This document shows, one piece after another, positions 24,879-58,198 of a stretch of 64,000 bases of DNA. The notes beneath the pieces are model-generated. The model was given only the letters and a program-made list of their open reading frames with translations, was not told where the DNA came from and did no database searches. Location of the stretch: positions 111,113-175,112 of the forward strand of contig CAWDIT010000013.1 of the NCBI GenBank assembly GCA_963802435.1, written 5' to 3'. Source of the DNA: an uncultured bacterium. GTDB taxonomy: Bacteria; Pseudomonadota; Gammaproteobacteria; Burkholderiales; Burkholderiaceae_C. A program made the position numbers and the translations under genes. The stretch's first letter is position 1. Each line of letters begins with the position of its first letter.

Positions 24879-25772
24879 CTAGCCCTTGCGACGGCGTCCG
24901 AAGCTCGGGGGCAGCCAGGGCAGCGCCAGCAGCAAAGCGGTGCCGGCGACGACGAGCGCCCACACCTGACCCAGCGGCCAGACATAGAACAGCGGCATCA
25001 GCGCGAGGTAGAACCAGTCGAATTGCAGCGTGCCGGCGGCCACCGCCATGTCGGCCGCGCCGCCCTGGCTCAGCGCCGGCGCCACAAGCGACAGCGCGAG
25101 CAGCGTCGCCAGCAGGCCCGCCATGATCGGCCGCGGCGGGTTCGTGCGCGCCTTGGGCACGCGCTGCACGTGCACCCACATCAGCAGCAGCACGACGAGC
25201 GGAATGCCGATGTGCATGAACGCCAACAGCGAGAAGAAGCGGTCGTTCACGCTGCTCGCGTAGATGAAGTTGCGCATCAGTGCGCCGCCGAAAATCGGCA
25301 ACCGGTCGAGCCATTCGAAGCTGGCGGTGATGACGAACTGCGCCATCCTGTCCCACGGCAGCATGTAGCCGTTGATGCCCGACACGTAGACCAGCCAGAT
25401 CAGCGCCACGCCGGTCAGCCAGGAGAACGAGCGGAAGCCCCGCAGCCGGTCGAATGCGAAGTGGCGCAGCATGTGCAGCAGCATCGTGAACGCCATCGCA
25501 TCCGACGCATAGCGGTGCAGGCTGCGCAGGATGCCGCCGGCCCACCACTGACCGTGCGTCAGCGCCTCGACCGATGCATACGCGTCGCTGACGCCGGTCT
25601 CGAAGAACGCGTACAGGTACAGACCGCTGGCGGCGACGACCCAGAACAGGAAGAAGCTGATCGCGCCGAGCTGGTACAGCGGGTTCAGGCGGTCGCCGAA
25701 GGCCGCGTTGAACGGCGCCTCGACACGGATGAACAGCCATTGCAGCCAGCCCTGCAGGCGCTTGATGATCAT
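24879..25772 (-). CDS. diheme cytochrome b (cytochrome b N-terminal-domain-like)
   Basis: ATG at 25772 overlaps the upstream stop (ATGA). Two His pairs spaced 14 residues apart (SLHRY..LLHML and FMHIG..WVHVQ), as in the bc1/b6 heme ligands. It is a paralogue of the N-terminal half of 27707..29266. Confidence 0.8.
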   Translation of the reverse strand: MIIKRLQGWLQWLFIRVEAPFNAAFGDRLNPLYQLGAISFFLFWVVAASGLYLYAFFETGVSDAYASVEALTHGQWWAGGILRSLHRYASDAMAFTMLLHMLRHFAFDRLRGFRSFSWLTGVALIWLVYVSGINGYMLPWDRMAQFVITASFEWLDRLPIFGGALMRNFIYASSVNDRFFSLLAFMHIGIPLVVLLLMWVHVQRVPKARTNPPRPIMAGLLATLLALSLVAPALSQGGAADMAVAAGTLQFDWFYLALMPLFYVWPLGQVWALVVAGTALLLALPWLPPSFGRRRKG

Positions 25773-27196
25773 GCCGGGTCCGGGCGCGCAGCCGGCTGCC
25801 GCATCGCCTTCACGACGACGACGACGAACAGCAGTCCGCCGACGATCGCGATCAGGCCACCGAGTCCCATCAACCCCATGCCGGCCACCTCGCCCGGGCT
25901 GCGCAGCACCTGCTCGGCGCCGGCCACCTTGCGCTGCACGCCGTAGCCGCCCGACCACACCAGGCCGACGATGTGCAGCAACTGCCCGCTGCCATAGAGC
26001 CAGGGCTGCAGCGTCGCCGAGCGCGCGTTCGGCGCGGCGTAGCCGAGCTGCGGCAGCAGGTGGTAGACGAGGCCCATCAGTGCCAGCGTCACGCCGACAA
26101 TGCAGCCGTGGTAGTGCGCCGGTATGCGTACGTTGCTCCCGCTGATGAAGACGCCGATGAGTCCGCCGGCCGCAAAGAGCAGCACCGACGACACCAGCGC
26201 CGCGCGCAGGGGCCGCGCCGTGACGTCCGGCGACGGAGCGCCGGCGAGCGCGAGCACGACCGCCAGGCCGGTCGGCAGGATCGCGACGCCGCCGCCGAGG
26301 CGCATCGCCCAGGTGAGCAGGTTGCGGTGCTCCACCGACGCGACGTCGTAGGCCAGGTAGGCCCAGGGCGTGACGAACACGCTCGCCAGCGCGAGCGCGA
26401 ACATCAGCAGCGCGATGCGCGGCGACAGGCGCACCCGGGCCCCGCTGGCGCCGGCCAGCCACAGCCAGGCGACGAGCATCAGCAGCGTCCAGGTGAACTG
26501 CAGCGCATGGCCGCCGCCCCAGAACGCGATCTCGTAGTAGGCCTTGCCGGCGAGCGAACGCGGGACGACGGCGAGCGACCACGCGAACGCGAGCAGCGCG
26601 ACGGCCGTGGCGACGGCGCTGGCGTTCAGCCCGAAGCGCAGCGCGCCAGCGCCGTCGAACGAGACGCCGAGCCGGGGCGCGAGCCACAGGCCGCGCAGCA
26701 CGAGCAGCGCCGTGCCGATGCCGAACACGACCAGCCCGGCGAGGAACAGCGGCCCGTCGAGCACCGGGATGTAGTTGGCCATCACCGCCTCGCCGCGGTC
26801 GAGGAAGGGCGCCAGCGACATCATCAGCGCGCCTGCGCCGGCGAGGGCGAGCGCCACCCAGCCCGAGCGAATGCCGCGTGGCGCGCTGTTCAGGCTCCAG
26901 AGCAAGCCCGCGACGGCGACGAACCACACCAGCACCGAAAGGTCCACATGCACGACGAGCGCGACGCGAAAGAAGTCGGCGACCGGCAGCCACTGGTTGA
27001 CTCCTGGCGTGCGCGAGAGCACCAGTAGCACCGAGAACACGCCCGAGCCGACGAGCGACAGCACGGCGAGCCACAGCCAGCCGCGGGCGAGGGCACGGCG
27101 CGCGCCCGCGGGCACGGCGAGCGTGTAGTCGGTTGCGGCGGCGGACGCCAGCGCCGGCGCCTGTGAGGCGAGAGGAAGCACAGTGGTGGTGTTCAT
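25769..27196 (-). CDS. divergent heme-copper-oxidase subunit I-like membrane protein
   Basis: 475 aa. The HCO signature helices are recognisable: ALVVHVD, FWGGGHALQF, IPAHYHGCIVG..LVYHLLP. The helix VII HH pair reads VEHRN. ATGA overlaps at both ends. Confidence 0.75.
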   Translation of the reverse strand: MNTTTVLPLASQAPALASAAATDYTLAVPAGARRALARGWLWLAVLSLVGSGVFSVLLVLSRTPGVNQWLPVADFFRVALVVHVDLSVLVWFVAVAGLLWSLNSAPRGIRSGWVALALAGAGALMMSLAPFLDRGEAVMANYIPVLDGPLFLAGLVVFGIGTALLVLRGLWLAPRLGVSFDGAGALRFGLNASAVATAVALLAFAWSLAVVPRSLAGKAYYEIAFWGGGHALQFTWTLLMLVAWLWLAGASGARVRLSPRIALLMFALALASVFVTPWAYLAYDVASVEHRNLLTWAMRLGGGVAILPTGLAVVLALAGAPSPDVTARPLRAALVSSVLLFAAGGLIGVFISGSNVRIPAHYHGCIVGVTLALMGLVYHLLPQLGYAAPNARSATLQPWLYGSGQLLHIVGLVWSGGYGVQRKVAGAEQVLRSPGEVAGMGLMGLGGLIAIVGGLLFVVVVVKAMRQPAARPDPA

Positions 27197-27714
27197 TGGA
27201 GGGCGATGCCGCCTTTCTCGGCGTCGAAGTCGATGACCAGGATCTGCGCCGGTGCGAGACTCACGGTCTGCTCGCGCTGATAGTCGAAGCCACTACCGGC
27301 GGCGCTGTCCTTCAAGCGCACGGCGACGCGGTGTTCGCCGGCCGCCACGTTCAAGCGCTGGTAGACCGTCGAAGCGCCGTCCTTCGACAGCCCCGACGGC
27401 TCGGCGACGTGGCGAACCGCCGGCGCGCCGTCGATGTCGACCTCGACGCGAACCGGAGCGCGCTCGCGCTCGCACTTCATCGTCGCTCGCATGTTGGGCG
27501 GCAGCTTCGCGAGTTCTTCGGCGCCGAGCTGCCGGCATTCGGCGACACGCTTGCCGGCGTGCGTGAAGCTCAGCTTGATCAGCGCCTGGTCAGGTGCCAG
27601 GTGGTGGTACTCGGGCCAGTGGGAGAACACGCCGATGACGAGCGCGAACACGCCATAGAGCAGCAACTGGCCGGCCCAGGCGAGCGGTGTGGTTCGTGCC
27701 TTGGGTCTATCCAT
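27193..27714 (-). CDS. hypothetical membrane-anchored protein (173 aa)
   Basis: One N-terminal TM segment (LAWAGQLLLYGVFALVIGVF) and a soluble domain predicted to be beta-rich, with two Cys. It is translationally coupled to both neighbours. No family recognised. Confidence 0.6.
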   Translation of the reverse strand: MDRPKARTTPLAWAGQLLLYGVFALVIGVFSHWPEYHHLAPDQALIKLSFTHAGKRVAECRQLGAEELAKLPPNMRATMKCERERAPVRVEVDIDGAPAVRHVAEPSGLSKDGASTVYQRLNVAAGEHRVAVRLKDSAAGSGFDYQREQTVSLAPAQILVIDFDAEKGGIALQ

Positions 27715-29266
27715 GCTGCAGGCTCGTCTGCACGGGTCGCGGCAGCGGCGCGACGCGGCGACGCAGCGCGTCCAGCGCCGCGGCGACGTCGGTCTCGTCG
27801 CCGGCGTCTGCCCACGTCACTTCGATGCGCTCGCGCGGCACCGAGGCACGCAGTTGCGGCTCGCGCTCGCCGAGCAGGCGCTGCTGCGTCCACCGCGCGC
27901 CGAGGCGAAACTCGCAGCCGCCCTCACGGCAGCCTGTCACCAGCACGCCCGCGGCGCCGCCGCGCAGCGCGTACTCGACGAACGAGGGCGGCAGCATGCC
28001 AGTGCAGATCAGGCTCAGGCTCGTCACGTCGGCGGCTTCCAGCGCAGCGACGCGCGCCCCGCGGTCGCAGCCGATGACGACGATCCGACTGTCGCCCTGC
28101 AGTGCGGCGAGCTGGCGTTCCATCTTCTGGCGCAGGCTGTTCAGCGGCATCTGCGGCATGTCGATGCCGGTGGCGAGTTCGGCCGCGCCGCGAAACGGCG
28201 TCGCCGAGGGACACGAGCCGACGCAGATGCCGCAACTCGAACAGAGGTCGGCGTCGACCTGCGCGAGCTGCCTGGCGATTCTTCCGTTCGGGTGCGGCAG
28301 CATCGTGATCGCCGCATACGGGCAGTCGTCGAAGCAACGCCGGCAGCCGTTGCAGTTGTCAGGGTCGACCCGGGCCACTGCGGGCGCCGCAGGTCGTGGC
28401 AGCCAGGGCAACGCGAACAGCAGCAGCAGCGTCGCGCCGACCAGCAGCCACAGCGCGCCGGCCGAGCTGGCGTACATCAGCGGGTGGACGAACAGCAGCC
28501 ACCAGTCGAGCGCGACGGTCCGAGGCGCGCTGGCGAGATCCGCCGCGCCCTGGTCTGCCACCGGCAGCGCCAGCGCCAGTGCGAGGAGCGCCAGCGTCAC
28601 GCCGGCGGCGAGCGTGCGCGGCGGGAACACCTCTGCGCGGCTGAGCCGCTGGATGTGGAACCACAGGCCGAACACCAGCAGCAGCGGCACGCCGAGGTGG
28701 ATGAACACGAACAGCGAGAACAGCCGGTCACCGACACTGGCAGGGCCGAGGAAGTTGCGCGTCAGCGGCGACGCGAAGAACGGCAGCGCGTCCAGCCACT
28801 CGGCGGTGGCGATGGCGGAGAACTGGCCGAGACGGTCCCAGTTCAGCCAGAAGCCGCCGATCGCGCTGACGAAGGCGAACAGCAGCAGCGGCACACCGGT
28901 GAGCCACGAGAAGCGGCGAAAGCCGTGGTAGCGGCCGAACAGCCATTCGCGCAGCAGGTGGGCCAGCATCAGGACGACGAAGGCATCGGCCGCGTAGCGG
29001 TGCAGGCTGCGCAGCCAGCCGCCCAGGTACCAGGGTTGCCGCGACAGCTCGGCGATCGAGCGGTAGGCGCCCGCGACCGAGGTGTCGAGCACCGCATAGA
29101 GCACGATGCCGCTCGCCGCCAACAGCCAGAAGCAGAGGAAGCCCAGCGCGCCCAGGTGGCGCAGCGGGTTCAGCGCGCTTCCGGACACCGCGTCTAGGCC
29201 GCGCTCGCCGCGCTGCCACAGGGCCAGCGCGACTTCGCGTGCCGCCGGTGTCGACTCCTTGGCCAT
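27707..29266 (-). CDS. fusion protein: cytochrome b domain, 2x[4Fe-4S] ferredoxin domain and MvhD/FlpD-like domain
   Basis: ATG at 29266. Cytochrome b His pairs (SLHRY..MLAHLL, FIHLG..WFHIQ). CNGCRRCFDDCP and CSSCGICVGSCP. C-terminal LICTGMLPPSFVEYALRGGAAGVLVTGCREGGCEF resembles methyl-viologen-reducing hydrogenase delta subunit. Confidence 0.75.
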   Translation of the reverse strand: MAKESTPAAREVALALWQRGERGLDAVSGSALNPLRHLGALGFLCFWLLAASGIVLYAVLDTSVAGAYRSIAELSRQPWYLGGWLRSLHRYAADAFVVLMLAHLLREWLFGRYHGFRRFSWLTGVPLLLFAFVSAIGGFWLNWDRLGQFSAIATAEWLDALPFFASPLTRNFLGPASVGDRLFSLFVFIHLGVPLLLVFGLWFHIQRLSRAEVFPPRTLAAGVTLALLALALALPVADQGAADLASAPRTVALDWWLLFVHPLMYASSAGALWLLVGATLLLLFALPWLPRPAAPAVARVDPDNCNGCRRCFDDCPYAAITMLPHPNGRIARQLAQVDADLCSSCGICVGSCPSATPFRGAAELATGIDMPQMPLNSLRQKMERQLAALQGDSRIVVIGCDRGARVAALEAADVTSLSLICTGMLPPSFVEYALRGGAAGVLVTGCREGGCEFRLGARWTQQRLLGEREPQLRASVPRERIEVTWADAGDETDVAAALDALRRRVAPLPRPVQTSLQHG

Positions 29267-29274
29267 CGTGATCG

Positions 29275-30162
29275 TCAATGCGCCGTGGGCACGGCCGGCG
29301 GTCGCGGCATCGACGCGGCCCGCTGCGCCCGGCGCGCGCGGCGCCGGTCTCGCCACTCGAGGGCGAAGAACCACAGCATCGCGAGCGCGAAGGTGATGCC
29401 GCCGGCGATCTCGATCGCCAGCGCGTAGCTGACGCGGTAGGTGCCGGTGGCAGGGTCGTAGACCGAGCACAGCAGGCGCACGCGTTCGACGAGTTCGGCC
29501 AGGCCCAGGCTCGCCGGCAGCGGCTGGTTGCGCAGCAGCAGGCGAAGCGGCTCGCCGAGCCGGTCGGCGCTGAAGTCGTCGCCGTAGACCTGGGCCGCGA
29601 GGCGACCCTCGGCGTCGACGATGCTGACCTGGAGCAGGTGGTCGAAACCGGCCTGGGTCGGCCGGTATTCGAAGCCGAAGTCGCGTGTCAGCGCAGCGAT
29701 GCTTGCCGCGCGCGGGCTGAGGAAGTCCCAGTTCGGCGCTGCGATCCGCTGCTGCAGCGCGAACGCCTTCATCGACTGCGGCGAATCGGCGGGCTGGTTG
29801 AAGCCGATGCTGACGACGTTGAACTGGCCCGCATCGAAGCTGCCGCGCATCGCCTGCAGCGCCTCGGCCAGCGCGCGCGTGCTCGTCGGGCAGACCTGGA
29901 AGCAGCCGGTGTAGATGAAGTTCACGAGCAAGGGCTTGCCGCGGTAGTCGGCCAGGCGCACCGGGCGCCCCTCGCGGTCGAGCAAGGTGAAATCGCCGAT
30001 CGTCCTGCCGATCGCCGCCTGGCTCGTGCGCAGCGCGGCGGAGGGGTCCAGCGCCGGCTGGAGGGCGGCTGTGTCCTCGGCGTGGGCCGGAGCGAGTATG
30101 GCCAAGGCAAGTGCGGCCAGCAGGCCGCGCAGCGTGGTGGCGAGCACGCCGGCAGCAGGCAT
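29275..30162 (-). CDS. SCO1/SenC copper chaperone with a C-terminal transmembrane extension
   Basis: ATG at 30162. Signal/anchor sequence, thioredoxin fold with CFQVCP (CxxxCP) and a distal His (GFDHLLQVSIVD), plus an extra C-terminal TM segment (IAGGITFALAMLWFFAL). Confidence 0.8.
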   Translation of the reverse strand: MPAAGVLATTLRGLLAALALAILAPAHAEDTAALQPALDPSAALRTSQAAIGRTIGDFTLLDREGRPVRLADYRGKPLLVNFIYTGCFQVCPTSTRALAEALQAMRGSFDAGQFNVVSIGFNQPADSPQSMKAFALQQRIAAPNWDFLSPRAASIAALTRDFGFEYRPTQAGFDHLLQVSIVDAEGRLAAQVYGDDFSADRLGEPLRLLLRNQPLPASLGLAELVERVRLLCSVYDPATGTYRVSYALAIEIAGGITFALAMLWFFALEWRDRRRARRAQRAASMPRPPAVPTAH

Positions 30163-30169: not shown

Positions 30170-31066
30170 CTAGCGCAGCAGCGCGTCGACGCTCGCCGCG
30201 GCAAGAACCAGGCTGAGTTGGAGCAGCGACGCGAAGAACGAACCCATCGCCGTCTGGCGGCTGGGGTGGCTTGCGAGGGCATGGGCCTTGCGCAGGAAGA
30301 AGAGGCCACCGGCCAGCGCACCGGCCAGGTAGATCGGCCCGGCGCCGAAGAACATCGGCAGCAGCGATGCAGCGACCAGCACGGCCGTGCTCCAGAACAC
30401 GATGCGCGCGGCGCGCTCGGTTCCCACCACCACCGGCAACATGGGCACGCCGGCGGCGACGTAGTCGTCGCGGTTGGCGATCGCCAGGCTCCAGAAATGC
30501 GGCGGCGTCCACAGGAACAGCACCAGCGCCAGCAGCGCCGGCAGGCTGCCGAGCGCGGGATCCACCGCTGCGGCGCCGGCCAGCACGGCAAAGCTCCCAG
30601 CCAGGCCGCCGATGACGATGTTGAGCCAGGTCCGCCGCTTCAGCCACACCGTGTAGACGACGGCATAGAAGAACGCGCCGAGGAAGACGTAGAGCGCCAC
30701 CATCGCGTTCAGCGCCCACCAGGCCGACGCGACCGAGGTGGCCAGCAGCAGCCCGATCAGCGCCAACCATGCCGGCGTGTGCGGCAGGGCGCCGGTGACG
30801 AAGGCGCGCGTGCGCGTGCGCGCCATCAGGCGGTCGCTGTCGGCCTCGACGTACTGGTTGAACGCGCCTGCGCTCGCCGAGGAGACGAAGACCGACAGCG
30901 CGAGCACCAGCACCTGCGCCAGCCCGGGCCCCGGTCCGGGCGTGAACGCGAAGCCGACCAGCGCAGTGAGCATGATCATCAGGCCGATGCGCAGCTTGAA
31001 CAGCCCGAGCACGTCGCGGACCAGGCGCGCCGGAGTGCGAGTTGCGTGCGCGATGGAGGCGCTCAT
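30170..31066 (-). CDS. ctaB: protoheme IX farnesyltransferase (heme O synthase)
   Basis: ATG at 31066. UbiA-family motifs (NQYVEADSDRLMARTRTR, YTVWLKRRT, LWTPPHFWSLA). Confidence 0.88.
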   Translation of the reverse strand: MSASIAHATRTPARLVRDVLGLFKLRIGLMIMLTALVGFAFTPGPGPGLAQVLVLALSVFVSSASAGAFNQYVEADSDRLMARTRTRAFVTGALPHTPAWLALIGLLLATSVASAWWALNAMVALYVFLGAFFYAVVYTVWLKRRTWLNIVIGGLAGSFAVLAGAAAVDPALGSLPALLALVLFLWTPPHFWSLAIANRDDYVAAGVPMLPVVVGTERAARIVFWSTAVLVAASLLPMFFGAGPIYLAGALAGGLFFLRKAHALASHPSRQTAMGSFFASLLQLSLVLAAASVDALLR

Positions 31067-31241: not shown

Positions 31242-32942
31242 TCATGACAGGCCCCAGACCTGAGACAGGTACTTCCAGTTGATGAAGTAGTAGAGCACGA
31301 AGGCCGCCAGGAACACCATCGCCAGCGCGAAGGTGCCGGGGGCCGCGAAGCCGGCCGAGCCGTATCCTTGCACGGCAGCGCCGACGGGAGTCGGCGGGAT
31401 CGGCGTAAAGCGCGGACTGACGGCGCCGCTGTCGAGCCGCTTGCCCCACAGCAGCGAACCGACCGTGACGTAGATGTAGATCGCGCCGCCGGCGATCGCC
31501 GCGATGCCGGCAAGCCCGACCAGGCCCATCATCAGGTAGGCCGCGCCCGGCCACTCGTAGGCCATGGCCGCGCCGCTGAAGGCCATGTCCCAGTGGCGGC
31601 GCGAGACGCCCAGCGTGCCCGCGCCCATCATCACCAGGCAGAAGAAATACATCGACAGGCCGAACAGGTAGGGCTGCAGCTTCGCCAGGCCGGGGGCGAT
31701 CATCTCGCGCCGGAACAGCACCGGGATCAGGAAGTAGGTCAGCGCCATGAACGACAGCGTCGTGCCGACGACCACCGTGGCGTGGAAGTGACCGGGCACG
31801 TAGATCGTGTTGTGGATGATCATGTTGAGTTGCTCGGTGCCCATCATCACGCCCGAAATGCCGCCGAGGAAGCCGAAGCCGATCAGCGAGATGAACACGC
31901 CGGAGAACACCGGGTTGCCCCAGGGCGCCTTGCGCAGCCACTCGAACAGGCCCTTGTTGAAACCCTTCTTGCGCTGCGCGACCTCGATCGCCCCGGGAAT
32001 GGTCAGGCCGTGGATCATCGAGGCGAGCACCGCGAAGTACATGAAGTAGCTGGTGTTGACGACCTTCCACGCGGTGCTCACGCCGGGATCGGCCAGCAGG
32101 TGGTGCGCGCTGGCGAGCTGCAGGAACAGGATGTAGAGCAGGAAGGCCCCGCGGCTGACGCGCTCCGACATCGGCTTGGCGCCGAAGGCGATCGCCGCGA
32201 CCGCATACCAGATCGAGATGTGCGCCGCGACGTTGATCTGCTGCGACGAGTGGCCGAAGGCCCACCAGATCGTGCGGTAGACGAGCGCATCGACTTCCTT
32301 GACGACGCCGACCGACATCAGGAAGGTCGGGATCAGGATGATTGCGCCGGAGGCGATCGTGAACACGGCGATGATCGCGGCGGTGATCGCACCGAAGGTC
32401 ACCAGCGGCACCGACCCCTGGTAGGTCTTGTCGCGCCTGGCAATGACCAGCGTGCCGAAGAAGACGAAGCAGGCGACGAGCGCGCCGACGGCGAACAGGA
32501 TCAGCCCGAGGTAGAAGTGCGGCGCGGCCATCATCGGCACGTAGCTCGTCATCATCACGCTCGAGCTGCCCTGGAACACGGCGACGTTGTTGGTGACGGC
32601 ACCGATCAGCATCAACGCGAATGCGAGCCAGGCGATGTTGGGTGTGGCGATCCGGCAGCGCAGCAGCGTCGACGAGCAGAAGTAGAGCACCGCGACCTCG
32701 AAGAAGATGATCCAGAAGATCAGCATGTCGATGCCGTGCGCGGTGAGCACCTGGTAGAAGGTGTCGGCGGCGAGCCAGTGCACGGCCGGCCAGCGCGTCA
32801 GCACGACGCCGACGGCGAGGATGCCGCCGACGAGCAGGAACACCACCGCCACCACGGCGTTGGCGATCATCAGTTTCTCGGCCTGGCCTTCGAACTGAAG
32901 GCCCGAGCGAGGGCAAGTGCGGTACGTCACGGCGCTCGACAT
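31242..32942 (-). CDS. heme-copper oxidase subunit I, B-family-like, lacking the cross-link tyrosine
   Basis: 566 aa, collinear from memory with Thermus ba3 subunit I: LTAHG, WWAFGHSSQQ (ba3 GHPIVY), SAHHLLADPG, VPGHFHATV. SD GGGAGG precedes the ATG. Confidence 0.85.
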   Translation of the reverse strand: MSSAVTYRTCPRSGLQFEGQAEKLMIANAVVAVVFLLVGGILAVGVVLTRWPAVHWLAADTFYQVLTAHGIDMLIFWIIFFEVAVLYFCSSTLLRCRIATPNIAWLAFALMLIGAVTNNVAVFQGSSSVMMTSYVPMMAAPHFYLGLILFAVGALVACFVFFGTLVIARRDKTYQGSVPLVTFGAITAAIIAVFTIASGAIILIPTFLMSVGVVKEVDALVYRTIWWAFGHSSQQINVAAHISIWYAVAAIAFGAKPMSERVSRGAFLLYILFLQLASAHHLLADPGVSTAWKVVNTSYFMYFAVLASMIHGLTIPGAIEVAQRKKGFNKGLFEWLRKAPWGNPVFSGVFISLIGFGFLGGISGVMMGTEQLNMIIHNTIYVPGHFHATVVVGTTLSFMALTYFLIPVLFRREMIAPGLAKLQPYLFGLSMYFFCLVMMGAGTLGVSRRHWDMAFSGAAMAYEWPGAAYLMMGLVGLAGIAAIAGGAIYIYVTVGSLLWGKRLDSGAVSPRFTPIPPTPVGAAVQGYGSAGFAAPGTFALAMVFLAAFVLYYFINWKYLSQVWGLS

Positions 32943-32952: not shown

Positions 32953-33492
32953 CTATTTCACGTACATGCGGCCGACCATCGTGTGATGGTTGATGCCGCA
33001 GTACTCGTTGCACACCACCGAGAATTGCCCCGTCTGGTTCGGAGTGACGTTCACCACGTGCTCGAAGCCGGGAACGACCTGGATGTTGATGTTGGTCGGC
33101 TGCAGCGAGAAGCCGTGGTTGTAGTCCATCGATGTCAGGTGCAGCCGGTAGGTCTTGTCCTTCTCGAGCTCGATGATCGGCCACCAGCTCCACAGGCGCG
33201 CGATCAGGTACACGTCGCTGCCCGCCGGTGGGTGCACCACCGGGATCTTCTGGTCGGTCTCGGTGCGCACGGTGTACTTGTCGACCATCGCCTGCGCCTT
33301 GGCGGCGAACAACTCGGGCGTCGTGCGGTAGGTCTCGGTCGACAGGTTCTGCTTGCCCCAGATGTGCCAGCCGACCATCATGAAGAACATCACCATGCAC
33401 CAGACGAAGGCGATGGCGATCCACGTGCCTTCGACACGGTCCAGCGGGTGCTTCCACCACAGTCGTTCGGCGGGGGGCAGGATGGCGCTCAT
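32953..33492 (-). CDS. heme-copper oxidase subunit II (cupredoxin, CuA site present)
   Basis: One TM helix and a cupredoxin domain. The CuA ligand pattern is H (MDYNHGF) plus CNEYCGINHHTM (C-x3-C-x3-H-x2-M). Confidence 0.82.
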   Translation of the reverse strand: MSAILPPAERLWWKHPLDRVEGTWIAIAFVWCMVMFFMMVGWHIWGKQNLSTETYRTTPELFAAKAQAMVDKYTVRTETDQKIPVVHPPAGSDVYLIARLWSWWPIIELEKDKTYRLHLTSMDYNHGFSLQPTNINIQVVPGFEHVVNVTPNQTGQFSVVCNEYCGINHHTMVGRMYVK

Positions 33493-33535: not shown

Positions 33536-33691
33536 TCACCTGGCCAGCGGCACGGTCAGAATGTCGATCACGCCCCAGAGGGTGTAGACCAACATCGGCA
33601 CCATCACGCCGAGGAACAGCAGCAGGAACGGGTTGTCCAGCAGTTGCTGCATCCAGGGGATGGATTCGTCGTCGTTTTCGGTCGCGTGCAT
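33536..33691 (-). CDS. small single-TM protein (51 aa) leading the oxidase operon
   Basis: AAGGAG lies 6 nt upstream of the ATG at 33691. There is a hydrophobic helix (FLLLFLGVMVPMLVYTLWGVI). It sits 43 nt upstream of subunit II. Confidence 0.5.
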   Translation of the reverse strand: MHATENDDESIPWMQQLLDNPFLLLFLGVMVPMLVYTLWGVIDILTVPLAR

Positions 33692-33881
33692 CGGGTCTCC
33701 TTCTTGCCGCGATGAAGGGCGCGGCAGGTGGTCGAAATTCTGCGGCGCTGGGCCGTGCAGAAAATTGAACCAAGATAAGAATGCGCGAGGTCGGTCCTGC
33801 TCGTGGTCGGCATGCGCATGCGCCGATCGATCAGCGATCCCCCCGATGTACCTCGGCCCCTGTCTGTCGCACAGTCGCCGC

Positions 33882-34871
33882 ATGGCCAACATGACAACGA
33901 CGCCTCCCGCGCCGGAAAGCGATCCCGCGCGACGCCTGGCATTCCTGCGACGCCTGGCTCTGCTGTGCGCGATCCTGGTGCTCGCGATCACCAGCCTGAG
34001 CGCGTTCATCCGCCTGTCGAAGGCCGGTCTCTCGTGTACCGATGGACCGCACTGTTACGGCCAGAACCTGCGCCAGCTCCAGCAGGGTCTTGCGGCGACG
34101 GCGGGCGAGGACGCGGGCACGGCCGCAGCGCGGCTGGCGCATCGCGTGGTGGCGAGCGCCGCGCTGCTGCTGGTGATCACGATGGTCGTCGTCTGCCTGA
34201 CGGCTCGCCCGCCGATGTGGCCCGAAAGCCGCGCCGCGCTCGCGCTTCTCGCGCTGGCCTTGTTTCTCGCCGTGCTGGGCCGATGGTCGGGCAACGCGCG
34301 CGTGCCGGCCGTGGCGATCGGCAACCTGCTCGGTGGCTTTGCGATGCTGGCGTTGTGCTGGCGGTTGGCGCGCGGGGGCTCCGTGCCCGGCACGCCATCG
34401 CTGCGCGCATGGGCCGGGCTCGGCGTGGTCCTGCTCGTGGTGCAGGTGACACTCGGAGGCTTGTTGAGCGCGTCCTACGCTGCGATGAGCTGCGGCGGCC
34501 TCGCCGAATGCCTCGCCGCGTCGGCGAACGTTCCGTGGAACGCCCTCGATCCCTGGCGCGAACCCGTGCTGGCGCTCACCCCGCCGCTCAACCCTTCGGG
34601 TGCGCTGGCGCAGACAGTGCATCGGCTGTCGGGGCTTGCCGTCGCGCTGGTCGTGGGGCCGCTGGGCATCGCCGCGCTGCGCAACGGTCGACGCGGTCAC
34701 GGCGCGCTGTTGCTGGTGTTGCTGGCTGCGGAGCTAGTGCTGGGCTTGCGGATGACCGGCGGCGTGTCGCTTGCACTGGCGCTGGCGCTGGCGCATAACG
34801 TGGTCGCCGCGTTGCTGCTGGCCACGGTGTTCGATCTGACGCGAGGGTCTGGCGCGGCGCGGTTGCCCTGA
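33882..34871 (+). CDS. ctaA: heme A synthase (COX15/CtaA family)
   Basis: Polytopic protein with Cys pairs (SCTDGPHC, SCGGLAEC) and conserved His residues (AHRVV, VHRLSG, AHNVV). The start is ATG 33882 or 33891. Confidence 0.75.
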   Translation: MANMTTTPPAPESDPARRLAFLRRLALLCAILVLAITSLSAFIRLSKAGLSCTDGPHCYGQNLRQLQQGLAATAGEDAGTAAARLAHRVVASAALLLVITMVVVCLTARPPMWPESRAALALLALALFLAVLGRWSGNARVPAVAIGNLLGGFAMLALCWRLARGGSVPGTPSLRAWAGLGVVLLVVQVTLGGLLSASYAAMSCGGLAECLAASANVPWNALDPWREPVLALTPPLNPSGALAQTVHRLSGLAVALVVGPLGIAALRNGRRGHGALLLVLLAAELVLGLRMTGGVSLALALALAHNVVAALLLATVFDLTRGSGAARLP

Positions 34872-34928: not shown

Positions 34929-35633
34929 ATGGAGCCGCGCCCGTTCGACGTGCCGAAATACCTCTCGGTACTGCCGCTGTTCAACGACCTCACGCCGGTC
35001 GAACTGAAGCAACTGGCCGAAGGGTGCATGCTGCGCCGCCTGGTGCGCGGCGACATGGTCTTCCGCATGGGCGAACCCTGCAACGAGTTCCACGTGGTCG
35101 TGACGGGGCAGGTCAAGTTGTTCGTGCTGTCGCCGGCGGGGCAGGAGAAGGTGCTGGAACTGGTCGGCCCTGGCCAGAGCTTCGGCGAGGCGATCATGTT
35201 CACCGACCGCCCCTACATGCTGGGCGCGCAGTCGCTTTCGGACATGCTGCTGCTCACGGTCTCGAAGCAGGCGGTGCTGGCCGAGATCGAGCGCGACCAC
35301 CGCTTCGCACTGCGCATGCTCGCCGGGCTGTCGCGCCGCATGCACGGGCTGGTGCACGACGTCGAGGCCTATTCGCTGCACTCAGGATTGCAGCGCGTGA
35401 TCGGCTTCCTGCTGCGCGACCAGGCGCTCGATGACTGCGCGCCGACCGAGGTGCGCACGGTGTCGCTGCCGGTCAGCAAGGCGACGATCGCGTCGCGTCT
35501 GTCGCTCTCGCCCGAGTACTTCTCTCGCGTGCTGCACGAACTCGAGGCCAGCGGCCTGATCGAAATCGACCGCCGCGACATCCGGATCCTCGACGCCCAG
35601 CGGCTTTCCCAGTTCGGCCTCACGGCTGCCTGA
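34929..35633 (+). CDS. Crp/Fnr-family transcriptional regulator without an Fnr-type Cys cluster (Dnr/NnrR-like)
   Basis: cNMP-binding-like beta-barrel (GQSFGE). C-terminal HTH with the E--SR recognition motif (SPEYFSRVL). No N-terminal CxxC..C motif. Confidence 0.85.
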   Translation: MEPRPFDVPKYLSVLPLFNDLTPVELKQLAEGCMLRRLVRGDMVFRMGEPCNEFHVVVTGQVKLFVLSPAGQEKVLELVGPGQSFGEAIMFTDRPYMLGAQSLSDMLLLTVSKQAVLAEIERDHRFALRMLAGLSRRMHGLVHDVEAYSLHSGLQRVIGFLLRDQALDDCAPTEVRTVSLPVSKATIASRLSLSPEYFSRVLHELEASGLIEIDRRDIRILDAQRLSQFGLTAA

Positions 35634-53025: not shown

Positions 53026-55539
53026 ATGACTACATATCACAGACAACTCGCCCTGTGCGTCGCGATCGTCGGTGCCCTCGCGGGCACTGCCACCGCGACC
53101 GCGCAACAGGTCACCGGCACGCTGGGCTCGCCCAGCGCCACCACGACCATCAGCGGCAAGCAACTCCCCGCACCCGACCCGGCCTTCGGCGGCGTGATCA
53201 AGCAAGGCGCGCTGCAGTCCAAGCCCTGGTGGGCGCCGCGCATCGTGCCGCCGAAGGGCGCGCCCAACGTGCTGCTGATCATCACCGACGACGCCGGCTT
53301 CGGCGTGCCCAGCACCTTCGGCGGCGTGATCCCGACGCCGACGATGGACCGCATCGCCCAGGAAGGCCTGCGCTACAACCGCGTCTTCTCGACCGCGCTG
53401 TGCTCGCCCACGCGCGCTGCGCTGATCACCGGGCGCAACCACCACTCGGCCGGCTTCGGCGTGATCTCCGAGCAGGCGACGGGCTTCCCGGGCTACAACA
53501 GCATCATCGCCAAGGACAAGGCCACCATCGGGCGCATGCTGCTCGACAACGGCTATGCCACGTCGTGGTTCGGCAAGAACCACAACACGCCGGCCTTCGC
53601 GGCGAGCCAGGTCGGGCCCTTCGACCAGTGGCCCTCCGGCATGGGCTTCGAATATTTCTATGGCTTCAACGGCGGCGATGCCAACCAGTGGCAGCCGAAC
53701 CTGTTCCGCAATTCGACGCAGATCTATCCGTTCGAGGGCAAGCCGGGCTGGAACCTCGTCACCGGAATGGCCGACGACGCCATCGACTACATGACGCGGA
53801 TGCACCAGATCCAGCCTGACAAGCCTCTCTTCATCAAGTACGCGCCCGGCGCCACGCACGCGCCGCACCACCCGACCAAGGAGTGGGTGGACAGGATCAG
53901 CGCAATGCACCTGTTCGACGGCGGCTACGAGAAAGTGCGGCAGACGATCTTCGAGAACCAGAAGCGCCTGGGTGTGATCCCGAAGGACACCCAGCTCGGG
54001 CCCTGGCCGAAAGAGGTGCTCAAGCCCTGGGACCAGCTCAGTGCCGACGAGAAGAAGCTCTTCATTCGCCAGGTCGATGTCTTCGCCGCCTATGCAGCCT
54101 ACAGCGACGCCGAGATCGGCCGCGTGATCCAGGCCTTCCAGGACCTGGGGCGGCTCGACAACACGCTCATCATCTACATCAACGGCGACAACGGCACCAG
54201 CGCCGAGGGCGGTCCGATGGGCACGCCGAACGAGGTCGCGTTCTTCAACGGCCTCAACCAGTTGCCCATCGACGTGCAGATGAAGTTCTACGACGTCTGG
54301 GGCACCGAGCAGACCTACAACCACATGTCGGCCGGCTGGTCGTGGGCCTTCGACACGCCGTTCTCGTGGTTCAAGCAGAACGCCTCGCAGCTCGGCGGCG
54401 TGAACCAGAACATGGTGGTGTCGTGGCCGGCGCGCATCAAGGACAAGGGCGGCCTGCGCGAGCAGTTCGTGCACGTCATCGACGTCGTGCCGACGATCCT
54501 GGAGGCCGCCGGCATCAAGGCGCCCGAGATGGTGGACGGCATCAAGCAGGCGCCGATCGAAGGCACGAGCTTCGCCTACACCTTCGACGCGAAGAACGCC
54601 AAGGCAGCGACGCGGCACAAGCGTCAGTATTTCGAGATGATGGGCCAGTGGGCGCTGTACGACGACGGCTGGTTCCTGAGCACCCAGGTCAACCGCGCAC
54701 CGTGGGAAGCCTTCGGACCGGCGAACGCGGACCCGCTGAACAACCAGGTGCTGCAGCTCTACAACCTGAACGACGACTTCAACCAGACCACCGACCTCGC
54801 GGCGAAGAACCCGCAGAAGGTCAAGGCGATGAAGCAGGCCTTCGTTGCCGAGGCGAAGAAGTACCAGGTGCTGCCGTTCGACGCCTCGGTGGCGGCGCGC
54901 ATCGTCGCGCCGCGGCCGAACATCACCGCCGGGCGCAGCGAGTTCGTCTACACGCGGGCTATGGTCGGGTTGCCGCAAGGCGATTCGCCGCTGCTGCTGA
55001 ACACCTCGTACACGGTCACGGCCGACATCGAGGTGCCGCCCGGCGGCGCGGAAGGCATGATGCTGACCTCCGGCGGGCGTTTCGCCGGCTACGGCTTCTA
55101 CCTGCTGAAGGGCAAGCCGGTGTGGCTGTGGAACATGGTCGATCTGGAGCGCATCAGGTGGGAAGGCCCCGACGCGCTGACGCCCGGGCGGCACACGGTC
55201 GAGTTCGACTTCAAGTACGACGGCCTCGGCGCCGGCACGCTGGCGTTCAACGACTTCAGCGGCGTCGGGCGGCCGGGCGTCGGCACGCTGAAGGTCGATG
55301 GCAAGGTGGTCGACACCAAGCAGATGCCGAAGACGCTGCCCATGATCCTGCAGTGGGACGAGAGCTTCGACATCGGATCGGACACGCTGACCGGCGTGAA
55401 CGACGCCGACTACAAGCCGCCGTTCGCGCTGACCGCCAAGTTGAACAAGCTGACGATCAAGCTCGACCGGCCGCAGTTGTCGCCCGCGGACATCAAGAAA
55501 CTTCAGTCGGCGATGCAGGAGAAGGCGAAGGCCGATTGA
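53026..55539 (+). CDS. arylsulfatase (Cys-type, formylglycine-dependent), paralogue 1
   Basis: Signal peptide, DDAGFG, CSPTRAALITGRNHH, GKNHN. 837 aa. Confidence 0.9.
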   Translation: MTTYHRQLALCVAIVGALAGTATATAQQVTGTLGSPSATTTISGKQLPAPDPAFGGVIKQGALQSKPWWAPRIVPPKGAPNVLLIITDDAGFGVPSTFGGVIPTPTMDRIAQEGLRYNRVFSTALCSPTRAALITGRNHHSAGFGVISEQATGFPGYNSIIAKDKATIGRMLLDNGYATSWFGKNHNTPAFAASQVGPFDQWPSGMGFEYFYGFNGGDANQWQPNLFRNSTQIYPFEGKPGWNLVTGMADDAIDYMTRMHQIQPDKPLFIKYAPGATHAPHHPTKEWVDRISAMHLFDGGYEKVRQTIFENQKRLGVIPKDTQLGPWPKEVLKPWDQLSADEKKLFIRQVDVFAAYAAYSDAEIGRVIQAFQDLGRLDNTLIIYINGDNGTSAEGGPMGTPNEVAFFNGLNQLPIDVQMKFYDVWGTEQTYNHMSAGWSWAFDTPFSWFKQNASQLGGVNQNMVVSWPARIKDKGGLREQFVHVIDVVPTILEAAGIKAPEMVDGIKQAPIEGTSFAYTFDAKNAKAATRHKRQYFEMMGQWALYDDGWFLSTQVNRAPWEAFGPANADPLNNQVLQLYNLNDDFNQTTDLAAKNPQKVKAMKQAFVAEAKKYQVLPFDASVAARIVAPRPNITAGRSEFVYTRAMVGLPQGDSPLLLNTSYTVTADIEVPPGGAEGMMLTSGGRFAGYGFYLLKGKPVWLWNMVDLERIRWEGPDALTPGRHTVEFDFKYDGLGAGTLAFNDFSGVGRPGVGTLKVDGKVVDTKQMPKTLPMILQWDESFDIGSDTLTGVNDADYKPPFALTAKLNKLTIKLDRPQLSPADIKKLQSAMQEKAKAD

Positions 55540-55705
55540 TCCCGCCGCTGGATGAAGCCCGGCCAGAAGCAGCGACACAGGAAGCGTCTGAAGCTCGTAC
55601 GCAACGCCCGATCCTTCTCGCAGCGCCTTCCTTCGCTGCCAACACGGGTGCCTGTGAAGGGCGACACGATCAACCGGGTTGCATGACGTTCGAAGGACAC
55701 GAGAG

Positions 55706-58198
55706 ATGACTACAAGTCCCAGACACCTCGCCTTGTGGGTCGCGATGGTCGGTGCCCTGACGGTCCCTGCCTCAGCGGCGGCGCAGCAGGTCACCGGCAC
55801 CCTGGGGTCGCCCACCGCCACCACCACCACGGGCGGAAAGCAGCTTCCGCTGCCCGACCCGAAGTTCGAAGGGGTCATCAAGGAAAAGGCCTCGGAGTCC
55901 AAGGCCTGGTGGCCGCCCCGCGTCGTGCCGCCGAAGGGCGCGCCCAACGTGCTGCTGATCATGACCGACGACAGCGGGTTCGGCGCACCGGGCACCTTCG
56001 GCGGTGTCGTGCCGACACCGGCCATGGACCGCATCGCGAAGGCCGGGCTGCGCTACACGAACTTTCACTCCACGTCGCTGTGCTCGCCCTCGCGTGCGGC
56101 ATTGATCACCGGGCGCAACCACCACGTGGCCGGCTTCGGCGTGGTGGGCGAGATCGCCACCGGATTCCCGGGCTACGACTCCGTGATCCGCAAGGAGAAC
56201 GGCACGATCGGCACGATCCTGCGCGACAACGGCTACGCGACCTCGTGGTTCGGCAAGAACCACAACACGCCCTTCTACCAGGCGACGCAGGCCGGGCCCT
56301 TCGACCAGTGGCCGAACGGCATGGGCTTCGAGTACTTCTACGGCTTCGTCGGCGGCGACGCCAGCCAATGGCAACCGAACCTGTTCCGCAACACGACGGC
56401 GATCTTTCCGTTCGAGGGCAAGCCGGGCTGGAACCTGACGACGGCGATGGCCGACGAGGCGATCCAGTACATGAAGCAGATCAAGGCCGTCGCACCCGAC
56501 AAGCCGTTCCTCGTCTATTACGTTCCGGGCGGCACACATTCGCCGCACCACCCCACGCCGGAGTGGATCAAGAAGATCGGCGACATGCACCTGTTCGACC
56601 AGGGCTGGAACAAGATCCGCGAAACCATCTTCGCCAACCAGAAGCGGCTGGGCATCATGCCGGCGAACGCCCAACTGACCCCCTGGCCGAAGGAACTGCC
56701 GCAGTGGGATTCGCTCGGGCTGGTCGAGAAGAAGCTTTTCATCAAGCAGGCCGATGTCTTCGGCGCCTACCTCGCCTACACCGACCACGAGATCGGCCGC
56801 GTCATCCAGGCGGTCGAGGACATGGGCCAGCTCGACAACACGCTGATCATCTACATCGCCGGCGACAACGGCGCGAGCCCGGAAGGCATGCTCAACGGCA
56901 CGCCGAACGAGTTCACCACCTTCAACGGCGTTCCGGTGCCGGTCGATGCGCAGATGCTCTGGTATCCGTTCTGGGGCTCGGACAAGACCTTCCCGCACTT
57001 CGCGGCACCCTGGGCCTGGGCGATGGATACGCCCTTCAAGTGGACCAAGCAGGTGGCGTCGCACTACGGCGGCACGGCGCAGGGCATGGCGATGTCGTGG
57101 CCCGGCCACATCACCGATGGGGGCGGCATCCGGCGCCAGTTCCATCACCTGATCGACATCGTGCCGACCATCCTGGAGGCAGCCGCCATCCCGGCGCCGG
57201 AGATGATCAATGGCGTCAAGCAGCGCGCCATGGACGGCGTGAGCATGGCCTACACCTGGGACAAGGCGGGCGCCGAGGTCGCGTCGCGACGCAGCACGCA
57301 GTATTTCGAGATGCTCGGCAACCGCGCCATCTATCACGACGGCTGGGTGGCCAACACGACCCCGGCGACGCTGCCGTGGGAACTGAGCACCAAGCCGGCG
57401 CCCGACGTGATCACCGGCTACCAGTGGGAGCTCTACAACGTGGCCGAGGATCCGACCGAGTTCAACGACCTCGCGGCGAAGATGCCGGACAAGTTGAAGC
57501 AGATGCAGGACCTCTTCTACGCCGAGGCGGCCAAGCATGACGTGCTGCCGCTGGACAACACGTCCCTGACGCGCTGGAACGCGCCGAAGCCGAACCTCAC
57601 CGGCGGACGCAAGGTCTTCACCTACTCGGGGACGCTGAGCGGCATCCCCAACAGCGGCGCACCGAGCATCCTGAACCGGTCGTACACCATCACCGCCGAG
57701 GTCACGATCCCCAAAGGCGGGGCCGAAGGCATGATCGTCACCGATGGCGGGCGCTTCGGCGGCTACGGGCTGTTCCTGAGCAAGGGCGTGGCCGGCATCC
57801 GCAAGAGCAAGCCGGTGTTCCTCTACAACCTGCTCAACCTGAAGCGCACGGTGTGGGCCGGGCCGGAGCTGGGCGCCGGCAAGCACACGATCGTCTTCGA
57901 GTTCACCTCCGCCGCGCCGGGCCTGGGCAAGGGCGGCACGGGCGTGCTCAAGGTGGACGGCAAGGAAGTGGCGCGCAACACCATGGAGAACTCGATGCCG
58001 ATCACCTTCCCGGAAGACGAGACCTTCGACGTCGGCATGGACACGCGCAGCGGCGTCGCGATGGTGGAGTATCGCTACGACGTGCCATTCAGGTTCACCG
58101 GCACGATCAACAAGCTCCGCTTCGACCTCGGGGAGCAGAGCCTGACGACCGCGGAGCGCGAGCAGATGCAAAAGACCGTCGCCCGGGCGCGCGACTAG
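55706..58198 (+). CDS. arylsulfatase (Cys-type), paralogue 2
   Basis: The ATG at 55706 aligns with the paralogue 1 N-terminus. DDSGFG, CSPSRAALITGRNHH, GKNHN. Collinear with paralogue 1 throughout. Confidence 0.9.
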   Translation: MTTSPRHLALWVAMVGALTVPASAAAQQVTGTLGSPTATTTTGGKQLPLPDPKFEGVIKEKASESKAWWPPRVVPPKGAPNVLLIMTDDSGFGAPGTFGGVVPTPAMDRIAKAGLRYTNFHSTSLCSPSRAALITGRNHHVAGFGVVGEIATGFPGYDSVIRKENGTIGTILRDNGYATSWFGKNHNTPFYQATQAGPFDQWPNGMGFEYFYGFVGGDASQWQPNLFRNTTAIFPFEGKPGWNLTTAMADEAIQYMKQIKAVAPDKPFLVYYVPGGTHSPHHPTPEWIKKIGDMHLFDQGWNKIRETIFANQKRLGIMPANAQLTPWPKELPQWDSLGLVEKKLFIKQADVFGAYLAYTDHEIGRVIQAVEDMGQLDNTLIIYIAGDNGASPEGMLNGTPNEFTTFNGVPVPVDAQMLWYPFWGSDKTFPHFAAPWAWAMDTPFKWTKQVASHYGGTAQGMAMSWPGHITDGGGIRRQFHHLIDIVPTILEAAAIPAPEMINGVKQRAMDGVSMAYTWDKAGAEVASRRSTQYFEMLGNRAIYHDGWVANTTPATLPWELSTKPAPDVITGYQWELYNVAEDPTEFNDLAAKMPDKLKQMQDLFYAEAAKHDVLPLDNTSLTRWNAPKPNLTGGRKVFTYSGTLSGIPNSGAPSILNRSYTITAEVTIPKGGAEGMIVTDGGRFGGYGLFLSKGVAGIRKSKPVFLYNLLNLKRTVWAGPELGAGKHTIVFEFTSAAPGLGKGGTGVLKVDGKEVARNTMENSMPITFPEDETFDVGMDTRSGVAMVEYRYDVPFRFTGTINKLRFDLGEQSLTTAEREQMQKTVARARD

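Follow-up and report, generated by a model that had tools for sequence, protein, structure and literature searches.

Here, we describe a gene found in a 64,000-nucleotide stretch of DNA from an uncultured bacterium of the Burkholderiaceae_C (contig CAWDIT010000013.1, positions 111,113 to 175,112 of the forward strand), referred to here as the window. The gene is an open reading frame (ORF) on the minus strand, with its ATG at 27196 and its stop codon at 25769-25771, and it encodes a paralogue of subunit I of the haem-copper oxidoreductases (HCOs) that we name HCOL. It lies in a cluster that also encodes an HCO of the eNOR type, one of the nitric oxide reductase (NOR) families, together with cofactor-biosynthesis proteins and two cytochromes b (Table 1). 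The G+C content of HCOL at third codon positions (GC3 = 0.93) is in line with that of the other genes of this 68% G+C window. An initial annotation of the window had placed an HCO subunit I paralogue at 25769-27196. We found the gene at these coordinates, but on the minus strand, and all four motif strings on which that annotation relied (ALVVHVD, GHALQF, VEHRN, and IPAHYHG) are present in its translation.

Fold and predicted haem and metal ligands of HCOL

HCOL matches the Pfam COX1 family (PF00115) with an E value of 2.7e-13 and 50 bits, against a cut-off of 34.8, while no NCBIfam model matches it. A phmmer search of the PDB with the single HCOL sequence returned no HCO, its sole match being a spurious kinase (E=0.17), so a family profile was needed. 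With a profile of 104 members we retrieved Thermus ba3 subunit I (E~3e-18), all matches falling inside the HCOs, and hhalign of the HCOL family against an eNOR/ba3 alignment gave a probability of 100% (E~1e-50). The AlphaFold2 (AF2) model of HCOL contains twelve transmembrane (TM) helices with a predicted local distance difference test score (pLDDT) of 93 and a predicted template modelling score (pTM) of 0.92, and a Foldseek comparison of this model with the PDB places ba3 subunit I on top (TM-score up to 0.77), with all other HCO families ranking below it. These Pfam, profile, AF2, and Foldseek results bear out the assignment to the HCOs: HCOL is an HCO subunit I homologue and is nearest to the B family. 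Our data indicate that it is most likely a 12-helix membrane haem protein derived from a B-family or eNOR-type HCO subunit I.

We assigned ligands in helices II, VI, and X from two independent alignments, made with HMMER and hhalign, which agree with each other, and we scored conservation across 115 HCOL family representatives clustered at <=50% identity. The helix II and helix X ligands, H83, H361, and H363, align with ba3 H72, H384, and H386 in both alignments and are at least 97% conserved. By alignment, H361 is the predicted proximal ligand of the high-spin haem and H363 the predicted second ligand of the low-spin haem. Together with the R422-K423 basic pair, these residues show that HCOL retains a predicted bis-His low-spin haem site (H83/H363) and a predicted proximal ligand of the high-spin haem (H361). 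In helix VI, H230 aligns with ba3 H233, and F234 stands at the His+4 position that holds the cross-linked Tyr in O2-reducing HCOs (A, B, and C families); family-wide, this position is Phe in 88 and Tyr in 11 of the 115 representatives. In these respects we agree with the initial annotation, which had read the helix II ligand, the helix X pair, and the first CuB His as kept, the Tyr as changed to Phe, and both haem axial-ligand sets as intact.

The constraint on HCOL extends well past its haem ligands, since about 45 other positions are also near-invariant family-wide. The near-invariant residues include H83, N141-Y142-x-P144, E222, W226, G229-H230, Q233 (114/115), T295 (106/115), M298, S337, H361, H363, and R422-K423. 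Both T295 and M298 lie in helix VIII, and M298 aligns with ba3 T302, which we take to be the conserved Thr beside the CuB ligands (T352 in R. sphaeroides). HCOL may have an altered distal pocket lined by H230, Q233, Y280, and M298.

Of the three His that bind CuB or FeB, the two contributed by helix VII are those missing from HCOL. The hhalign alignment sets this canonical His-His pair opposite Y280-L281, with no gap from the helix VI His, while HMMER puts it at L281-A282 instead. Across the family, Y predominates at position 280 (61 of the 115 representatives, with F in 17 and H in 9), and position 281 is aliphatic (L in 46, A in 14, and I in 12). A normal His-His pair elsewhere in helix VII would have been an alternative, but HCOL contains no such pair at all. 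Nor did we find, across the 115 representatives, a relocated His pair or a conserved substitute ligand around helices VII and VIII that is kept family-wide; residues 274-300 contain no His in 26 representatives and just one in 47. To judge from these alignments, HCOL has lost two of the three CuB/FeB His without a Glu being swapped in. HCOL thus combines the fold and haem His ligands of an HCO subunit I with an incomplete set of metal-binding His, and since only H230 is kept of the three, it would be unable to form a canonical CuB/FeB site. Given that the Tyr is absent and the metal ligands are lost, O2 reduction by HCOL is unlikely.

The initial annotation had likewise doubted O2 reduction, but on other grounds: it read VEHRN as the helix VII pair with its first His changed to Glu, giving a His/Glu/His third metal site. 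That part does not stand. Both profile alignments put the pair at 280-282, and in the AF2 model a loop at 283-287 separates helix VII (259-282) from helix VIII (288-319). E289 and H290 come second and third in helix VIII, 8-9 residues downstream of the His-His position, and are not homologous to it; by analogy with A- and B-family structures, we take them to lie ~12-15 Å above the metal site. The annotation had made its case depend on orthologues keeping the Glu, and family-wide they do not: E289 is found in 54/115 (47%) and H290 in 35/115 (30%) of the representatives, position 290 being otherwise Phe or Tyr. Among the 120 closest homologues (>=72% identity, Burkholderiales), E289 is present in 118/121 sequences and H290 and R291 in 121/121 each. 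The E-H-R motif is therefore near-fixed within the close Burkholderiales clade only, and on this pattern of conservation E289-H290 is a clade feature and not the ligand set of the family.

A NOR-like enzyme with a non-haem Fe or another metal held by the helix VI His, the Glu, and the His of the E-H pair thus appears very improbable to us. It can draw on the strict conservation of E-H-R in the close clade and on precedents for altered ligands (the His->Asp change of gNOR and the three His plus Glu of cNOR; PMC11214002). Against it stand the two independent profile alignments, the position of E289-H290 towards the periplasm, in the opening turn of helix VIII, and the lack of the pair in most of the family, including the representatives without any His in the segment. 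Neither the cNOR precedent invoked in the initial annotation nor the His->Asp case of gNOR applies to HCOL, in which two metal-ligand His are simply gone. Since the His/Glu/His site is not upheld, there is no new NOR active-site chemistry here.

The HCOL gene cluster and its conservation

The genes on the minus strand run in the order 51-aa ORF, eNOR subunit II, eNOR subunit I, CtaB, SCO1, cytochrome b-FeS-MvhD fusion, p173, HCOL, and second cytochrome b, with CtaA and a Crp/FNR-family regulator diverging from them (Table 1). We found ATGA-type start/stop overlaps on both sides of HCOL, and the last four of these genes form a translationally coupled module. The cytochrome b-FeS-MvhD fusion joins a dihaem cytochrome b (N-terminal bc1/b6 type) to two [4Fe-4S] ferredoxin motifs and an MvhD/FlpD domain; it probably starts with MAKEST at 29266, and the longest ORF extends to 29470. 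Each of the two cytochromes b matches Pfam Cytochrome_B and retains the dihaem-type H-x13-H pairs. The second one is cut off after about residue 269, homology to the closest loci ends at ~24883, and a SirB-family gene follows; no Fer2-FAD-NAD(P)H module is present anywhere in the 64-kb window. The p173 protein has 2387 homologues, every one of them named 'hypothetical', and its beta-sandwich domain carries two invariant Cys, C60 and C81. It belongs to no Pfam family, and its AF2 model (pLDDT 87) has no PDB structural match with E<1e-3. We considered whether p173 is a degenerate cupredoxin subunit II, which is unsupported given that its model is without a significant PDB neighbour.

Table 1. 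Positions in the window of HCOL, of its motifs and residues, and of the neighbouring genes (residue counts refer to the 115 family representatives)
Feature	Position	Strand	Description and basis
HCOL (HCO subunit I paralogue)	25769..27196	-	475 aa, 12 TM helices; ORF, Pfam COX1, AF2
ALVVHVD motif	26942-26962	-	HCOL aa 79-85
H83, helix II	26948..26950	-	predicted low-spin haem axial ligand; aligns with ba3 H72; 114/115
GHALQF motif	26495-26512	-	HCOL aa 229-234
H230, helix VI	26507..26509	-	sole retained CuB/FeB-type His; aligns with ba3 H233; 115/115
Y280-L281	26354..26359	-	equivalent of canonical helix VII His-His pair (hhalign); neither residue His
VEHRN motif	26321-26335	-	HCOL aa 288-292
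E289-H290	26327..26332	-	clade-specific pair at periplasmic start of helix VIII; AF2, alignments
M298, helix VIII	26303..26305	-	aligns with ba3 T302; 113/115
IPAHYHG motif	26105-26125	-	HCOL aa 358-364
H361-Y-H363, helix X	26108..26116	-	align with ba3 H384/H386; 113/115 and 112/115
R422-K423	25928..25933	-	haem-propionate basic pair; align with ba3 R449/R450; 110/115 and 111/115
p173	27193..27714	-	173 aa; N-terminal TM helix and beta-sandwich; stop overlaps HCOL start (ATGA)
Cytochrome b-FeS-MvhD fusion	27707..29266	-	Pfam Cytochrome_B, Fer4 families, FlpD; NCBIfam
Second dihaem cytochrome b	24879..25772	-	297 aa; Pfam; start overlaps HCOL stop (ATGA)
SCO1/SenC-family protein	29275..30162	-	copper chaperone / thiol-disulfide oxidoreductase; Pfam, synteny
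Haem O synthase (CtaB/CyoE)	30170..31066	-	TIGR01473, 254.5 bits, cut-off 210.3
eNOR-type HCO subunit I	31242..32942	-	566 aa; GHSSQQ, His-His pair and HxH kept
eNOR subunit II (cupredoxin / COX2-like)	32953..33492	-	179 aa; Pfam COX2, NCBIfam
Conserved single-TM ORF MHATENDDESIPWMQQLLDNPFLLLFLGVMVPMLVYTLWGVIDILTVPLAR	33536..33691	-	51 aa; directly upstream of eNOR subunit II
Haem A synthase (CtaA/COX15)	33765..34871	+	Pfam; divergent; start approximate
Crp/FNR-family regulator	34929..35633	+	Pfam; adjoins CtaA, syntenic in many loci

The second HCO subunit I of the cluster scores far under all NCBIfam oxidase cut-offs. It has a Gln at the position of the cross-link Tyr, a published diagnostic of eNOR (PMC8756737), and we therefore assign it to the eNOR type. 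The 51-aa ORF MHATENDDESIPWMQQLLDNPFLLLFLGVMVPMLVYTLWGVIDILTVPLAR is 86% identical to a called gene in one related locus (L081), while the match in another (L168) is one of position and length only; it is probably a small eNOR subunit. Since this ORF overlaps the longest-ORF call of CtaA, the start of CtaA probably lies near 33765 or later. The closest NCBIfam likeness of the Crp/FNR-family regulator is to the FtrB/FixK type, below cut-off, and the regulator may be what makes the cluster respond to O2 or NO.

The HCOL family is large, with >5600 clusters at 90% identity and, at 50% identity, 1535 representatives with E<1e-3, 639 of them below 1e-30. A scan of species-representative genomes gave at least 600 matches, and every named source among the matches listed belongs to the Pseudomonadota (Beta, Gamma, Alpha, and Magnetococcales). 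The NCBI name for these homologues, 'cbb3-type cytochrome c oxidase subunit I', is misleading. The ratio of nonsynonymous to synonymous substitution rates (dN/dS) of HCOL against six orthologues is 0.15-0.37, which indicates purifying selection, and in the same genome pairs HCOL is 84-89% identical while eNOR subunit I is 95% identical.

Among close relatives, we compared 80 beta- and gammaproteobacterial genome loci and found the order eNOR II-eNOR I-(CtaB)-SCO1-cytochrome b-FeS-p173-HCOL-cytochrome b conserved in essentially all loci with sufficient flank, a minority having the order cytochrome b-p173-cytochrome b-FeS-HCOL. In nearly all of these close loci p173 accompanies HCOL, and in ~70 of the 80 the second cytochrome b is a 640-680 aa protein with a C-terminal Fer2-FAD_binding_6-NAD_binding_1 module.

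We also sampled the wider family through 61 diverse metagenome loci with >=4 kb of flank, counting neighbours within 8 kb of the HCOL homologue. CtaA was present in 37 of the 61 loci, SCO1 in 33, cytochrome b and eNOR II in 21 each, CtaB and eNOR I in 18 each (all eNOR I sequences reading GHS[SA]QQ), and p173 in 17. The immediate neighbour of HCOL was CtaA 17 times, SCO1 6 times, and CtaB 4 times. These counts indicate that HCOL is accompanied most constantly by genes for cofactor biogenesis in haem-A HCOs, and not by eNOR itself. Three distant members (33-36% identity) have CtaA divergently adjacent and neither eNOR nor cytochrome b within 8-10 kb. In the low-GC members L083, L084, and L170, HCOL and CtaA diverge from a gap of 12-160 bp with no other respiratory genes nearby, and the arrangement QueC-CtaA<>HCOL-(small gene)-peptidyl-prolyl isomerase is common to two of these three, one of which is an alphaproteobacterial metagenome-assembled genome (MAG). 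One distant HCOL stands last in an eNOR cluster, preceded by CtaA and a second SCO1. The HCOL of a Magnetococcales MAG lies facing an A-family oxidase cluster (COX3-SCO1-COX2-COX1-SCO1-CtaB) whose COX1 reads SHPAVY and thus keeps the cross-link Tyr. The CtaA-only contexts and this A-family context rule out that HCOL is a protein specific to eNOR.

Gene fusions connect HCOL to several of the same partners (representatives P0121, P0128, P0186, P0205, P0247, P0256, P0257, P0263, P0266, and P0270). In P0247, which directly follows an eNOR-type COX1, HCOL is fused to a C-terminal haem O synthase (CtaB), and in P0121 it is fused to an N-terminal cytochrome b. Eight representative clusters contain HCOL followed by a TM segment and tetratricopeptide repeats (TPR), and another has a separate TPR gene downstream; some of the fused TPR regions weakly resemble, below threshold, the TPR domain of CcmH/CycH from cytochrome c biogenesis.

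HCOL among known haem-copper oxidoreductase families

We found that the HCOL family has already been noticed and named, yet barely described, in a 2026 preprint on Ferrigenium straubiae, with HCO analysis by an HCO specialist (bioRxiv 10.64898/2026.01.22.701106); beyond this preprint, we found no literature on a CuB-less subunit I paralogue beside ctaA. The Ferrigenium eNOR operon is listed there as beginning with eNOR II, eNOR I, haem o synthase, and Sco1. Next come 'Cytbc1-like protein 1', whose domains are cytochrome b, FeS, FAD, and NADH, then a hypothetical gene and the 'eNOR scaffold protein', and lastly PerM and 'Cytbc1-like protein 2', which bears the annotation ferredoxin/F420-hydrogenase delta subunit. 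For the scaffold protein (IMG 2878407321) the annotations are 'hypothetical protein' and KEGG K02274, cytochrome c oxidase subunit I; the preprint authors describe it as 'of unknown function' and the presence of its gene as 'a very common observation' (bioRxiv 10.64898/2026.01.22.701106). Like HCOL, it is a COX1-like gene that comes after eNOR II and I, haem O synthase, and sco1 in an operon of the same gene content, and differs in a slightly changed gene order and the inserted PerM gene. HCOL shows what sets this family apart, being a second COX1-like gene in an eNOR-CtaB-SCO1 operon with cytochrome b-FeS flanks, and by synteny it belongs to the family of the Ferrigenium scaffold protein, the equivalence resting on synteny and annotation. 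Under denitrifying Fe(II)-oxidising conditions, the scaffold protein and three module partners were found in the Ferrigenium proteome, and under denitrifying conditions scaffold transcripts were ~7-30-fold below those of eNOR I, if the column order of the supplement is as we assume (bioRxiv 10.64898/2026.01.22.701106). This difference suggests an accessory protein and not a stoichiometric core subunit. The same authors ask how haem A is made under anoxia; ligands, family breadth, and links outside eNOR are not covered in the preprint.

The best sequence and fold matches of HCOL are eNOR subunit I and ba3-type subunit I, with which it shares the 12-TM fold, both haem ligand sets, the helix VI His, and the propionate basic pair. 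HCOL and eNOR also share a Gln at helix VI His+3 (GHSSQQ versus GHALQF). In contrast to eNOR and ba3, HCOL lacks the helix VII His pair, and its partner is the non-cupredoxin p173 where theirs is a CuA subunit II. It differs further from eNOR in having Phe and not the diagnostic Gln at the Tyr position (F234, with Q233 one residue earlier) and in its length (475 versus 566 aa), with no C-terminal extension. The eNOR of Rhodothermus contains haem As in both haem sites; eNOR requires haem As and CtaA, and its operons commonly carry CtaA (PMC11214002).

A PNAS survey of new NOR families includes no HCOL-like family among them and calls gNOR, with its His->Asp change, the first HCO with a replaced active-site His. 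Like HCOL, gNOR and the cNOR, qNOR, and nNOR families have no cross-link Tyr and have non-standard metal sites, but they keep >=3 protein ligands at homologous positions, whereas the HCOL family keeps one. HCOL is set apart from gNOR by the loss of both helix VII His, with no Asp or Glu at either position, and from cNOR, qNOR, and nNOR by its single His with no Glu at His+4. Unlike the Glu of cNOR, E289 is outside the ligand positions and is not conserved; the conserved E222 lies 8 residues before H230, at the start of helix VI. We also considered the sNOR clusters norSY-senC-orf1 as an HCOL equivalent and set them aside, since the papers we found say nothing on orf1.

Outside the HCOs, HCOL can be compared with systems that mature or supply cofactors. 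NifEN is a paralogue of NifDK on which the nitrogenase cofactor matures. HCOL resembles it as a paralogue of a catalytic subunit that is encoded next to this subunit and to cofactor-biosynthesis genes and that has lost catalytic residues while apparently keeping cofactor binding; the two are not homologous, and the analogy is functional only. Surf1/Shy1 is a haem A chaperone, and mitochondrial Cox15 needs ferredoxin and ferredoxin reductase. Both systems recall the roles proposed for HCOL, in the handling of haem A between CtaA and subunit I and in the supply of 2Fe-2S/FAD/NAD(P)H electrons to haem A synthase, a likeness that comes from gene context, since their folds are unrelated to that of HCOL. 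We saw no Surf1 gene in the HCOL gene cluster.

Possible roles of HCOL

Our data suggest that a role as helper or redox partner is more probable for HCOL than one as a new catalyst. We tentatively favour, at a little under even confidence, an accessory haem protein that would help haem-A HCOs to mature or supply them with electrons, as a scaffold or carrier working with CtaA and CtaB. As such, HCOL would offer a subunit-I-like scaffold that binds haem O or haem A during or after the action of CtaB and CtaA, following a NifEN-like logic for a haem-A-type HCO, here eNOR with haem As in both sites. Its haems might in addition relay electrons between the cytoplasmic FeS/flavin cytochrome b module and haem A synthase or eNOR, an electron supply for which mitochondrial Cox15 with its ferredoxin and ferredoxin reductase would be a precedent, and HCOL itself would be neither an NO nor an O2 reductase. 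We favour a role in maturation because the broadest associations and the fusions of the family are with biogenesis genes, because the family adjoins both eNOR and an A-family oxidase, and because HCOL appears to be sub-stoichiometric to eNOR. A bolder form of this proposal, which we consider unlikely, is that HCOL is a maturation platform that works physically with haem A synthase at low O2 and hands haem A(s) to the subunit I of eNOR or of aa3-type oxidases. Its two haem pockets would receive haem O or haem A (As), and electrons from the cytochrome b-FeS/flavin module would let it enable or complete the formation of haem A(s). If true, a NifEN-like principle would operate in respiratory oxidases, for which none has yet been described, and the electron-donor system that bacterial haem A synthase has long been missing would be identified.

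Several points weigh against the accessory role. The word 'scaffold' is a label in the Ferrigenium preprint and not a result (bioRxiv 10.64898/2026.01.22.701106). The strict conservation of the haem ligands and of the propionate clamp would fit an electron-transfer or catalytic role equally well, as would the cytochrome b-HCOL fusion and the tight link with two dihaem cytochromes b that carry FeS/flavin modules. The proximity of CtaA, CtaB, and SCO1 may merely reflect that HCOL travels with any haem-A HCO operon. To our knowledge, haem A chaperones such as Surf1 and HCO assembly factors are not HCO-like, so that the superfamily offers no precedent. Finally, the partner cytochrome b in the window is without its flavin module, and the module may therefore be partly impaired in this genome.

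We considered whether HCOL could instead be a respiratory electron-transfer subunit, in a complex with the two cytochromes b, the FeS/MvhD and 2Fe-2S/FAD/NAD(P)H modules, and p173. Such a complex would connect eNOR with cytoplasmic NAD(P)H or ferredoxin, or with the quinone pool, through the two haems of HCOL, across the membrane or laterally; the flow could also be reversed, in the supercomplex put forward in the Ferrigenium preprint, with NO reduction coupled to NAD+ reduction. This role is supported by the overlapping start and stop codons that join the four genes, by the H-x13-H pairs and Pfam match of both cytochromes b, by the Fer2-FAD-NAD modules in orthologues of the second one, by the invariant haem ligands of HCOL, by the P0121 fusion, and by the detection of all four proteins in the proteome of Ferrigenium during Fe(II) oxidation under denitrifying conditions. 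We nevertheless hold it to be possible but rather unlikely, given that many family members have CtaA, SCO1, or CtaB but no cytochrome b or eNOR within 8-10 kb, that some adjoin an A-family oxidase cluster instead, and that HCOL is intact in this genome where the flavin module has been lost. Purified Rhodothermus eNOR, moreover, is active with artificial donors and was described without such partners (PMC11214002).

The invariant Gln and Met, the ligand of the high-spin haem, and the one distal His are under strong constraint, and we asked whether they could serve a catalyst or sensor built on a high-spin haem with H230, Q233, Y280, and M298, with either a His/Met Cu(I) site or no second metal. 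HCOL might then act on a small molecule such as NO or O2, for example to supply or scavenge O2 for haem A synthase, which depends on O2, during denitrification, as proposed for NOD. The cytoplasmic reductant modules would be able to drive catalysis, CtaA is often adjacent, and the Ferrigenium authors have raised the question of how haem A is synthesised under anoxia. Yet two of the three metal ligands and the Tyr are lost with no conserved replacements, the TPR and CtaB fusions point to biogenesis, and among the near-invariant residues no polar chain resembling a K- or D-type proton channel seems evident to us; we regard such a catalyst or sensor as distinctly unlikely. The lost catalytic residues, and the faster evolution of HCOL relative to eNOR subunit I, might also be expected of a duplicated subunit I decaying without active site or function. 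This is the least probable of the readings considered here, being hard to reconcile with the very large size of the family, the near-invariance of the haem ligands and of the further positions described above, a dN/dS below 0.4, the conserved synteny, and the presence of the Ferrigenium homologue in a proteome.

HCOL represents a large proteobacterial family (>1500 clusters at 50% identity) of oxidase-subunit-I paralogues that, on our alignments, keep the haem sites and have lost the copper or iron site. Since its members are routinely annotated as 'cbb3-type cytochrome c oxidase subunit I', counts of oxidases and NORs in metagenomic surveys are inflated. The steady association with CtaA, CtaB, and SCO1 makes HCOL a concrete candidate for a step by which haem-A enzymes mature or receive electrons, and in Burkholderiales HCOL travels also with eNOR and NAD(P)H-linked cytochromes b. 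The eNOR enzyme produces N2O and is environmentally relevant. The interest of HCOL lies in the size of the family, in the systematic mis-annotation of its members, and in a possible part in haem A or eNOR biogenesis.

Elsewhere in the window, and unrelated to HCOL, two tandem paralogous sulfatase genes of ~838 aa each lie on the plus strand at 53026-58198.

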